Sequence record: LC487996
Length of the DNA stretch: 25,488 nt
Direction: 5' to 3' (one strand)
From: Stx2-converting phage Stx2a 981509
Shown here: positions 12,001-15,000 of the stretch, piece after piece
How positions within the stretch are numbered: position 1 is the stretch's first letter
Layout: every line of letters begins with the position of its first letter
Program-made: the position numbers

Positions 12001-15000
12001 GTACGATATGTACTTAACTTGGTCAATACAATTTGTTCTAAAATGGGGCGTTTTTTTACAACGCTTTGTATTTAATAGTATTGTTTTTTAGCGTGGGTGT
12101 ATTGCCTCGGCGATGTAAGGAGAGATCAGAATTGCGTTGTTTAGTGAGTTGTATCTATTTATTTTCCAATAAATACAATTGGTTATGTGTTTTTTTGGGC
12201 GAGAGGAAAAGAAAACCCGGCATGGAGGCCGGGTTGATGATTAGCGGTGTGGCCTTGAGCGATAATGCTCACACACATGTTCAAGATTTCCATGCCTTAT
12301 CCGTTCATAGGCATTCACATGAACTTCTCGATCGAATTGGTCATTCAAATTGTATGTAGACATCTGTGTTTTCTCATATTGGCGGCAGCCCTACAACCGC
12401 TTGAAAAAATGTACCAGACGCGCTAAGGTTACATCGCAAATATTGTGTACCTTAACAAGGGCTCCTTTTGGAGGCTCTGGTTAAACAGCATCAATGTCGG
12501 ACTGGGGAGTTGGACATTGTGCTGAATGCTTTTGCATTATTGAGGCCGAACGTAAACCTTCAGAATTGAAGAGATGCGTTCGGCTTCTTCGTTTGTGATA
12601 TCGTTAGGAATGCCTTTAATCGTTACTGTAACCCCTGATTCAGGTCGAAGAACTACTGGAAGATCATAGGTATGAAGTGCATTAGCCTTGCCTTCGACTT
12701 TTGTTGGTTCGCCAGTCAAATCTTTTTCCTCACTGGATTCTTTGTCAATCGGAGTGTATGGGATTTCTTCACCAGACTGGAAAGCTACAAACTTTTTGAT
12801 TGCACTTTCCATGCGGCTTTTATATGCAGTAATGCTGCTGTCGCTAGGCTTCGGCTCAGTTGCGTTGATGTATCGCTCGGCAAGCTCATTCACATCAAGC
12901 TGAGTAACATCACCCATTTCCTCTTCTTGGACTACCGTTAAGAGGCGAGCGGATGAGTTTTTTAAATTTCGAGCGGTGGCCTCCTTCATTATGTTCAGCG
13001 ACATAAGCTCTTCAAGGAAGTCCTTGAATGCCTGCACGCTAACGTTTGACTTTGCCATTTGCTCTCTCTCTAAGTTATTGACTCAGATCGAGTTTATCCA
13101 GGAATTGATTTGCATGCAAGACTCAAGTCTTGAGAATTTCCGTTCAAGATCCACTCTCAATAAAAAAGGCCGCACCTCTGCGACCTTTCATCTCCTAAAT
13201 CTCTTTTCTCTTACCTAAAGAAACAGCAGGCTGGGTCAGCCCTAACAACTTCAAGTGCATCGGTCAGAGAAAGCTCCGTGCTATACAGGTGTTATTTCAT
13301 ATCTTTTTGCATCCAATAAATTTTCCATCTGTCCAGAGAGCGGATGCACTTGATTCTTGTTGATGGCAGGACGTTTTTTCACCTGCCTCACCCTGCCATA
13401 CAGGACGCTGCTCACCGATATCTATCGTCCGGTCATTGATGTTATAGACAATATCCAGATCATTACGGATATACTCAGATGGCCTTATGCTTTCAATGAA
13501 TAGATGAACTTCTTTTTGACCGCTTGATACTCATGGCCATTAAACTCCATCTATCCTCTTTACCCAAACGTCTCTTCAGGCCATTGGCTGGCGATAACTT
13601 TCCCCACAACGGAACAACTCTCATTGCATGGGATCATTGGATATTGCGGGTTTAGTGGTTGTAGAAACACCTGACCGCTATCCCTGATCAGTTTCTTGAA
13701 GGTAAATTCATCACCACCAAGTCTGGCTATGCAGAAATCGCCGGGCTCAACAGCTTGCTCAGGGTCAACCAGAATTAACATCCCGTCAGGAAAACTAGGT
13801 TTGGAACCTGTTGGTGCGGTCATTGAGTTACCTTCAACCTCAAGCCAGAATGCAGAGTCACTGGCTTTTTTGGTTGTGCTTACCAATCTCTCCGCATCAC
13901 CTTTGGTAAAGGTTCTGAGTTCTGGAGAGAACATCCCAGCCTGAACATGAGAAAAAACAGGGTACTCATATTGTTTTTTAACTGGGGCCGATGAGTATTC
14001 GCCAACAGGTGAAAATGTCCCGTCGTGGTTGAATGATATGTTATCAATACCAAGGTATTTAAACACCACACCAATATCACTAAGAGATGGATGACGAGAT
14101 CCGCGCAACCAGTGTCCAATTCCACCCTGCGTCATACCTAGCTCTTCGGCTAACTTCTCTTGAGTTATGCCGAGCTCTTTCATTCTGGATCTAGCCAGTT
14201 CATACCATTTCATTTTCATGTCCTTATTATTACGCTCTGTACTGGAACCATCCATGCACAATGTGTATTTTTACTTGTATTTGAGAAGTACATATTGTAT
14301 TTTTTTATTCGTGGTTACTATGGAGGGCATATGAGCAACCTACGAAAATATCGAGAGTCACTGAATATCTCTCAAACAACACTTGCTAAGGCAGTTGGAT
14401 GCACACAGGGAGCTATCGGACATTGGGAATCTGGTCGTCGCTTCCCAGACCTTAAAACATGCCGTGCTCTTGTTGCGTGTCTAAACAAGTTAGGCGCAAA
14501 AGTAAGTCTTGATGACGTGTTCCCGCCGGAGCACAAAGCCGCTTAATAAGCGGAGCCGCTCTTTGTAACAACGGACATTCGTCCTACGTCGCTGAAAAGC
14601 GAGTCCCAAGATATCTGACCAACTAAGGCCATATGCGTTTCCACGCATACCTTTCAACTAACTATTCACTATTGGAAATCTTAAGAAATGGAACGAACAA
14701 GTTACAGCAAACTATCCCAGCGTGACGTTGATCGCGCAGAAACAGATTTACTCATCAACCTGTCAACGCTTACCCAGCGCGGTCTGGCAAAGATGATTGG
14801 CTGTCATGAATCGAAGATAAGCAGAACGGACTGGAGGTTTATTGCTTCGGTCCTGTGTGCTTTCGGAATGGCATCAGACATCAGTCCGATTAGCAGGGCT
14901 TTTAAGTATGCGCTTGATGGACTCACCAATAAAAAACGCCCGGTGTGCAAGACCGAGCGTTCTGATCAAATACAAATGGAATTTTAACAACATCCAACGA

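Follow-up and report, generated by a model that had tools for sequence, protein, structure and literature searches.

A predicted protein-RNA-peptide module in a replaceable cargo slot between cI and OL of the Stx2-converting phage Stx2a 981509

Stx2a 981509 is a Shiga toxin 2 (Stx2)-converting phage, of which a stretch of 25,488 nucleotides from sequence record LC487996 was analysed (hereafter the window; one strand, 5' to 3'). Between the cI repressor gene and the OL/pL region of this phage lies a compact minus-strand module (~12205-13190) in which a terminator, a promoter-like site, the gene ECs1184, a structured RNA, an open reading frame (ORF) of 40 residues and a second terminator follow one another in this order. 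Comparison of related loci at the sequence level shows that the trio formed by the protein, the RNA and the peptide is conserved across deep divergence, in relatives down to 23% identity. The combination of a core-binding-fold protein, an RNA and a peptide matches no catalogued defence, toxin-antitoxin, Pfam or Rfam family, and the module itself can be classed as a prophage moron that lies in a known slot.

In E. coli O157:H7, Stx2a resides on Sp5-type phages, and toxin release is affected by anything that makes their lysogeny more or less stable. Positions 11900-13600 of the window are 99.9-100% identical to VT2-Sakai/Sp5-type Stx-converting phages, where the ORF of 173 residues has been named ECs1184 (ECs_1184 on the Sakai chromosome), ORF23, VT2-Sap23/orf22 or ORF b63 of AP005153. 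ECs1184 is one of only two Sp5 genes that have been reported as non-deletable, and was previously without a domain assignment. The claim that it is needed for lysogeny now becomes a set of concrete alternatives, i.e. addiction, exclusion or RNA control, while the interval between cI and OL appears as a stacked defence-cargo slot with a candidate new RNA motif that shows covariation and with a member of a large uncharacterised protein family. The literature already contained the gene and its non-deletability; the fold of its product, the identity of the neighbouring pseudogene, the accessory status, the conserved peptide partner and the structured RNA were not found in the literature and libraries that we searched. 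The module comprises the following features.

13162-13189, minus strand: upstream intrinsic terminator (fold of -16 kcal/mol, z -3.7, six U)
13091-13132, minus strand: putative promoter-like site with a palindrome (position and hexamers conserved; below the threshold of a simple promoter scan)
12537-13058, minus strand: ECs1184, 173 residues, isoelectric point (pI) 4.9 (ORF call)
12364-12536, minus strand: conserved structured intergenic RNA (conservation, fold z -3.6, compensatory pairs)
12241-12363, minus strand: 40-residue ORF MSTYNLNDQFDREVHVNAYERIRHGNLEHVCEHYRSRPHR (phrog_21154), with a ratio of nonsynonymous to synonymous substitution rates (dN/dS) of 0.05-0.10
12205-12235, minus strand: slot-closing intrinsic terminator (terminator scan; fold of -14.3 kcal/mol, z -3.7)

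The protein, its peptide partner and the RNA between them

An initial reading of the window from its letters alone (the sequence-only reading) had proposed an acidic ORF of 173 residues with a purine-rich ribosome binding site, and this proposal stands: the ORF occupies 12537-13058, its product has a pI of 4.9, and the purine-rich GAGAGAGAG is read at 13070-13062. The same reading had taken the product for a lone protein of no recognisable family and the only one in the interval, which has to be given up on both counts, as ECs1184 has a core-binding-like N-domain, and a second gene (12241-12363) and the conserved structured RNA make it a member of a trio.

A first homologue search returned Enterobacterales only; an exhaustive profile search returned 651 clusters at 50% identity (E <= 0.001), and among the best 150 of these 651 clusters the proteins are ~160-240 residues long and nearly all match over their full length. 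The family is built from a conserved N-domain with two invariant basic/polar motifs, TARNLKNS and YKSRxxSAIKKF, a variable linker, and a conserved C-terminal motif, LPxxxRxxxGxxVxIxGxPxDLTxxEAERI. AlphaFold predicts for ECs1184 a four-helix N-domain at residues 8-94 (13037-12777) with a predicted local distance difference test score (pLDDT) of ~90, a disordered acidic linker at residues 102-128, and a beta-beta-alpha C-domain at residues 129-168 (12674-12555), with block pLDDT of 77-88 over most of its length. The predicted model shows the N-domain to have a tyrosine-recombinase core-binding (SAM-like) fold, and Pfam Phage_int_SAM_1 matches 5 of 28 family members (best E 3.6e-4); the closest folds that can be named are the core-binding domains of tyrosine recombinases and the integrase-fold repressors MrpR/YopR of SPbeta and SroF of phi3T. 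The catalytic domain with its R-K-H-R-H/W-Y residues is absent, as the protein ends at residue 173 with only the 40-residue beta-beta-alpha unit after the linker, and ECs1184 is therefore not a recombinase. Its dN/dS of 0.12-0.25, relaxed in the linker, indicates purifying selection.

Database searches placed ECs1184 in phrog_2602, a family annotated as of unknown function and its sole match in PHROGs, and gave nothing significant from Pfam, NCBIfam or PADLOC; nor did Pfam, PHROGs, NCBIfam or PADLOC show any homology to RexA or RexB. A profile of the family gave only chance matches to solved structures (best E 0.064, histone H2B), and Foldseek against viral structures gave nothing at E <= 0.001.

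The 40-residue ORF downstream is under strong purifying selection according to its dN/dS, it has taken up an in-frame insertion of 9 nt in Yersinia, and it is conserved at the protein level in the SH2026Stx1 allele, which has diverged at the DNA level. It occurs together with the large gene in 45 phage records. Three types of peptide were distinguished, i.e. type A, the 40 residues of the window; type B, 57 residues, in Proteus (phrog_33859); and type C, with a CxxC motif, in Serratia. Hidden Markov models of types A and B were tested on 26 diverged viral loci (33-77% identity) and on metagenomic homologues at 23-29% identity, and at every type A/B locus tested one of the two lies on the same strand within ~170 nt or less of the stop codon of the large gene. 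In all prophage-borne clades, and likewise in two that are metagenomic, the homologue is followed by a peptide of type A, B or C. No type has a match in Pfam or PADLOC, except for a weak treble-clef zinc-finger match of type C. A plus-strand ORF at 12265-12426 (VT2-Sap22, 53 residues, hydrophobic) was considered as a type I toxin and rejected as a shadow ORF, since it is absent in Cronobacter and SH2026Stx1 and runs antisense to the ORF with a dN/dS of 0.05. A Ralstonia P2-like phage (ON170261; L029) has, at 1889-2295, a tandem pair of small ORFs akin to the type B and type A peptides, beside a gene for a product in which an HEXXH (ImmA/IrrE-like) motif was recognised by eye. As this locus yielded no homologue of the large protein, the peptide family is wider than the module.

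No part of the cassette is better conserved than the spacer that separates the two ORFs, with 89-94% identity over 12536-12437 versus 72-87% in the ORFs, and over its ~170 nt a stable fold is predicted (z -3.6). The fold comprises a hairpin, P1 (12524-12486), a long-range helix, P2 (12481-12474 with 12421-12413), inner hairpins, a U-rich stretch with CAAG after it, and a final hairpin that abuts the ribosome binding site of the peptide gene. At the same position in the type B/C clades a consensus of 40 pairs was derived, 16 of which show compensatory changes; paired cells amount to 94.4% versus 36-48% when the partners are slid, and the 16 compensatory pairs compare with 2-5 after sliding and 7.1 +/- 1.7 after shuffling, where none of 500 shuffles reached 16. 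Covariation in the predicted RNA of the sister clades is thus shown by their alignment. A covariance model, R1, that was built from the type B/C clade alignment without the window clade finds a full-length match directly after the large gene in 28 loci, and has further matches in L026 (29.9 bits), L023 (16.8 bits) and L063/L061 (15.6 bits). In the window clade the layout is the same, TAGCG and U-rich-CAAG recur as landmarks, and P2 shows three compensatory pairs. The window RNA is probably homologous to that of the better-supported clade, as suggested by the layout, the shared landmarks and the intermediate L063 at 15.6 bits.

Rfam has no match to this element in the window (gathering and E-value scans) or in nine related loci, and a match to GadY at 12203-12332 scores 20 bits, far under the 45-bit threshold. 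An Oslo gp52-like ORF in the spacer was rejected, as single-base indels break its frame between lineages. As a separate observation, the loop of P1 is exactly inverted between E. coli (CCAACTCCCCAGTC, 12486-12524) and Salmonella (GACTGGGGAGTTGG, L003:4032-4070), with the stem kept; this looks like a palindrome-mediated template switch.

A replaceable slot and the insulation of the module

The module lies between cI and OL/pL on the cI strand, and the same placement was found in five other genera. The cI gene forms the upstream edge of the slot and the OL/pL region (11998-12187, minus strand) its downstream edge; the features around the module are listed below.

13560-14261, minus strand: cI repressor, helix-turn-helix plus S24 peptidase (Pfam Peptidase_S24 1.3e-28, HTH_3 2e-10), also labelled cI in the annotation of AP005153 and NC_000902
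13211-13550, minus strand: DUF3024 pseudogene, PADLOC candidate PDC-S43 (tblastn with SH2026Stx1 gp21)
11999-12015, 12024-12040 and 12057-12073: OL operators (AP005153 annotation)
12026-11998, minus strand: pL, TTGACC-17-TACTAT (promoter scan)
11536-11880, minus strand: N gene

The cI protein of the window has counterparts of 100% identity in phage ev017 and of 99.6% identity in phage E212, and the DNA of these two phages is 93-95% identical from N through pL/OL to 12236/12239, including the downstream terminator; the similarity resumes at 13562. Both phages are without the two module ORFs, and unrelated genes stand between the cI stop codon and the terminator: in ev017 (L032, 2115-3421) a two-gene set that matches the PADLOC candidates PDC-M24A and PDC-M24B, and in E212 (L033, 2476-3333) a protein of 285 residues with a weak HEC-09 match. 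Since phages with the same cI and the same OL/pL/N hold other cargo, the module is accessory and is not required by the immunity system. On this comparison, the interval from the cI stop codon to the terminator is a slot for replaceable cargo, comparable to the rexAB interval of lambda, in whose record rexB adjoins cI. Presence in some phages, absence from homologous relatives and sharp borders are all traits of a moron; a composition anomaly was not found, the GC content being 0.43-0.46 in the cassette versus 0.39-0.48 in the flanks.

Salmonella, Yersinia, Proteus and SH2026Stx1 have additional cargo that separates the module from cI, i.e. DUF3024, a phrog_6191 protein of 345 residues, or ORFs of 141-160 residues. 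The slot can therefore hold stacked units, and in the window it consists of a dead DUF3024 unit and the ECs1184 unit. The former was traced by tblastn with the DUF3024 protein of SH2026Stx1 (gp21), which matches ~13550-13211 at 81-85% identity (combined E 7e-44) in three frames, with 38/47 and 45/53 identities in two of them and the N-terminus in the third; at least two frameshifts and one internal stop separate the remnant from an intact gene. The intact SH2026Stx1 protein matches the PADLOC phage-defence candidate PDC-S43 (7e-42), and an intact DUF3024 gene directly follows cI in Proteus and SH2026Stx1 prophages. By homology, then, a DUF3024 gene is the first unit of the slot, and it has decayed here. 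With candidates for phage defence in several of its alleles, the slot looks like a defence hotspot.

Both ends of the module are marked by hairpins with z-scores of -3.7. In the upstream hairpin, the stem spans 13185-13168 and the U-tract 13167-13162 (-16 kcal/mol); in the downstream one, a stem at 12235-12214 precedes the U-tract UUUUCUUUU (-14.3 kcal/mol). The downstream hairpin is present in all aligned lineages, lies ~130 bp before OL, and is analogous to t_imm of lambda. An 85%-identical block that runs exactly from 13186 to 12205/12209 is shared by Salmonella prophages whose cI genes are of at least three kinds; Yersinia and Cronobacter have another, non-homologous terminator at the upstream position; and in SH2026Stx1 the terminators are conserved at the DNA level with a 40%-identical allele of the large gene between them. 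As homology blocks break at the hairpins and an unrelated terminator occupies the same place elsewhere, the bracketing is functional and not due to chance, and predicted terminators on both sides are shown by these comparisons to insulate the module. The upstream one would end the cI/DUF3024 transcript and shield the module from read-through from pRM. The downstream one is common to ev017 and E212; because these phages of the same immunity hold other cargo, it closes the whole slot and not specifically the ECs1184 gene. In strain 4276 (L031), the insertion sequence IS1203 is inserted at ~13186, in the upstream terminator.

The sequence-only reading had anticipated much of this arrangement. It had placed terminators at about 13165-13190 and 12201-12233 around the gene, where hairpins and homology breaks are indeed found; it had suspected the remains of a former gene in the gap of ~500 bp next to cI, now identified as the DUF3024 gene that matches PDC-S43; and it had likened the position of the gene to that of rexAB, with which the different genes carried by same-cI phages agree. 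The comparison with other Stx phage immunity regions that it had called for upheld the rexAB-like slot, but not the view of ECs1184 as its sole gene, since units stack.

Within the module, a promoter-like site with a -35 element TTGCAT (13119-13114), a 17-nt spacer and a -10 element TAAACT (13096-13091) precedes ECs1184. Its hexamers, GTCTTGC and TA(A/G)A(C/A)T, and its position are kept in 6 of 8 aligned lineages; it agrees with the consensus at 7 of 12 positions, and a simple promoter scan missed it. We infer that the TTGCAT-17-TAAACT site may act as a sigma-70-type promoter of the module. A perfect 16-bp palindrome, CAAGACTTGAGTCTTG (13132-13117), overlaps the -35 element and occurs once in the 25-kb window, where 0.24 copies are expected by chance; no further copies that could serve as candidate targets were found elsewhere in the window. 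Control of the module by cI was considered and rejected, as a matrix made from the six annotated cI operators finds no site within 12205-13190. Just past the slot terminator, ~100 bp upstream of OL, there is an extra cI-operator-like site, AAATACAATTGGTTATG (12171-12187), with a matrix score of 12.6 versus 14.3-20.9 for the six annotated operators; it is kept in SH2026Stx1.

The module is found in 235 of 5426 complete E. coli genomes, and a scan of genome contigs for related loci yielded one locus. In the clade at 41-46% identity the neighbours differ: few of the scanned flanking ORFs match cI-type S24/HTH proteins or N, two ORFs match DinI, and a UmuD-like N-terminal sequence was read by eye. 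The distant alphaproteobacterial homologues are chromosomal genes.

Possible workings of the module and their alternatives

It has been reported by Mondal et al. that, when Sp5 genes were removed in frame from a K-12 lysogen, only ORF21 and ORF23 (ECs1184) resisted deletion, while 43 other Sp5 deletions succeeded by the same method, and that both genes are perhaps needed for stable lysogeny (PMC5155283). Furthermore, ECs1184 was recovered in the RNA-associated fraction of uninduced Sakai cultures in a study of the RNA-binding proteome of enterohaemorrhagic E. coli, with a borderline false discovery rate of 0.065 (PMC7618764). This detection fits expression in the lysogen; spontaneously induced cells could contribute to the signal. 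The only natural loss of the module that we found is in strain NE92 (L030), where a deletion between two IS1203 copies has removed everything from gam through N, pL and the peptide gene to ECs1184, kil included; cI and the DUF3024 remnant are kept, and pL, N, kil and gam are lost together with the module. The literature that we searched contained no exclusion or abortive-infection phenotype for ECs1184, and nothing on this interval under the neighbouring locus tags, on the function of DUF3024/PDC-S43 or on Sp5 small RNAs.

We tentatively favour a module that regulates itself and resembles an addiction or abortive-infection system, with the large protein keeping the peptide in check, and would give this reading not quite an even chance. 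The module would be transcribed in the lysogen independently of cI, and ECs1184 would be a dimeric nucleic-acid-binding regulator or antidote that works on its own promoter palindrome, the RNA leader or the two together, and thereby limits the production or the activity of the 40-residue peptide, the putative effector. The whole unit would then be dispensable, and the loss of the large gene alone would be deleterious. Binding to DNA or RNA, the assignment of the effector role to one of the partners, and any anti-phage role are all conjectural parts of this scheme.

Several observations weigh against such a module. The failure to delete ECs1184 is a negative result that may have a technical cause, as the arms of both failed constructs (ORF21 and ORF23) would contain pL/OL/N. 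ECs1184 is acidic, with a net charge of -2 on its N-domain in addition to its low pI, and its linker is acidic in the lambdoid-prophage (enterobacterial) clade, whereas it is basic in the wider family. When ECs1184 was over-expressed, polynucleotide-kinase labelling of cross-linked RNA was about that of the green fluorescent protein (GFP) control (PMC7618764); together with the detection in the proteome, this shows that ordinary cultures produce ECs1184 and that it is no strong, general binder of RNA. The model R1 does not detect the window RNA (1.2 bits). Conservation of the palindrome's left arm is only partial, and direct repeats are found instead in Serratia. The peptide, for its part, lacks hydrophobic character and has no match among toxin families; in SH2026Stx1 a canonical terminator stands between the two ORFs; two alphaproteobacterial chromosomal homologues have no recognisable peptide partner; and near-identical C-domains of the large protein pair with type A in Salmonella or type B in Proteus, which argues against a tight co-evolution of protein and peptide. 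Finally, PADLOC-DB 2.0 gives 0 families for the proteins of the window, and only chance-level matches among the 28 family members.

Comparison with known systems places the module close to several of them and inside none. With toxin-antitoxin systems of types II and III it shares a small autonomous cassette with a palindrome over a promoter-like site, and a first product in which a disordered linker joins a putative nucleic-acid-binding domain to a small C-domain. A first gene that is reported as non-deletable, possibly for technical reasons, in a unit that as a whole is dispensable may be a further parallel. As in type II, two adjacent co-oriented genes occur together, the two alphaproteobacterial loci apart, and as in type III, a structured RNA lies between the genes and a hairpin or terminator follows the first gene. 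Unlike these systems, it has a ~170-nt spacer between the genes with a real terminator there in one allele, its putative toxin is a hydrophilic peptide of 40 residues with no known toxin fold, its RNA is not a repeat array, and it has no PADLOC match. The c4-icd-ant cassette of P1/P7 is similar in that a structured RNA lies directly upstream of a small ORF in the same transcript of an immunity-related phage cassette; its proteins are unrelated, however, and at 12364-12536 neither an Rfam match to C4 or any other family nor complementary target sites were identified. Aca autorepressors of anti-CRISPR operons provide another parallel: their loss is harmful because the unrestrained promoter reads into neighbouring genes. 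By analogy, the module is also a small cargo operon, and points into the same-strand pL-N-kil region behind a single terminator; it differs from Aca-type operons in that the regulator gene comes first and the fold is not helix-turn-helix, and no anti-CRISPR function is implied.

The most obvious precedent is lambda rexA-rexB, which occupies the same interval (from the cI stop codon to the t_imm/OL terminator) on the cI strand, is accessory, and is expressed from the prophage, as the module would be judging from its layout. If ECs1184 were plain Rex-like cargo for superinfection exclusion or abortive infection, expressed in the lysogen, able to detect or stop incoming phages and free of addiction, its non-deletability would have to be an artefact of cloning or recombination. 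The accessory nature of the module and the PDC-S43 and PDC-M24 matches in the slot of its relatives agree with this, as do the pL/OL/N arms that the two failed constructs presumably shared. On the other hand, the module has no sequence or profile similarity to rexAB, is probably not co-transcribed with cI, since a terminator and its own putative promoter intervene, and consists of a soluble core-binding-fold protein, an RNA and a 40-residue peptide rather than of a sensor and a membrane protein. A plain exclusion gene of the Rex type does not predict the published non-deletability, the method worked for the 43 other Sp5 genes, no PADLOC model resembles the module, and the sole natural loss found also removes the pL operon. 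We regard this explanation as unlikely, though still a serious contender. Somewhat further from our expectation is an RNA-centred scheme, in which a cis leader or processed small RNA controls translation of the peptide or acts in trans, with ECs1184 as its specific RNA-binding partner, in which a recombinase core-binding fold would have been put to use on RNA, reminiscent of RNA-based toxin-antitoxin control or of r-protein-style translational feedback. The RNA is indeed the most conserved part of the cassette, covaries in the sister clades, always lies between the two ORFs, and ends in a hairpin next to the ribosome binding site of the peptide gene; the borderline enrichment of ECs1184 in the RNA-associated proteome (PMC7618764) and the basic linker of the wider family point in the same direction. 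The GFP-like labelling of cross-linked RNA (PMC7618764), the acidic linker of the enterobacterial clade, and the inversion of the P1 loop between E. coli and Salmonella, which leaves that loop unable to act by sequence-specific pairing, make us doubt that the RNA is the functional core.

The proposal of Mondal et al. could also be taken literally, with ECs1184 as a lysogeny-maintenance factor of the phage, i.e. a second repressor of recombinase fold like MrpR/SroF of SPbeta-type phages that helps to keep pL/N/kil silent, so that its loss leads to induction or host death. Non-deletability in the lysogen (PMC5155283), the core-binding-like fold and the constant position next to OL/pL in lambdoid members are in its favour. 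Such a factor should, however, not be missing from phages with identical cI and 93-95% identical OL/pL/N, nor should the palindrome be confined, within the 25-kb window, to the promoter of ECs1184 itself; the module lies away from cI and N in other elements and is a chromosomal gene in Alphaproteobacteria, and a co-repressor would not need the RNA and the peptide that always accompany it. We consider this very improbable. The chance is slimmer still that the module is a host-directed moron, whose protein or peptide alters host expression or physiology (e.g. virulence or stress genes) and has no role between phages. Cargo that is probably expressed in the lysogen, a modelled nucleic-acid-binding-like fold and distant homologues that are ordinary chromosomal genes would suit it; it leaves the non-deletability unexplained, and the slot of the relatives is filled by defence candidates.

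In a bolder version, the module would be a three-component prophage system of a new kind. A core-binding domain freed from its catalytic domain would recognise a dedicated structured RNA and/or a palindromic operator and, by way of that RNA, gate a small basic peptide effector, in a form of addiction or abortive infection that would be widespread in proteobacterial mobile elements, given the 651 clusters of the family. We rate this extended version as rather unlikely.

Other features of the window

Just downstream of N, a protein of 156 residues (phrog_1636) is encoded by an ORF at 11007-11477 (minus strand). Positions 10999-11474 form an insert that is non-homologous to the Sakai segment holding ORF21/ECs1180, and this looks like a second variable slot. 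Further to the left there is a lambda cIII thermoregulator element at 10370-10428 (minus strand, 88.5 bits), and the left part of the window contains two Rfam matches to sRNA-Xcc1, at 3666-3751 and 4202-4291 (minus strand, 74.5 and 64.3 bits, respectively). In the nin/ant region, at 20718-20915 (plus strand), Rfam identifies isrK and the C4 antisense RNA, the latter together with its a1/b1 target sites, i.e. an RNA-controlled antirepressor module of the P1/P7 type. Three tRNA genes are located at 24108-24354 (plus strand), upstream of the late region.

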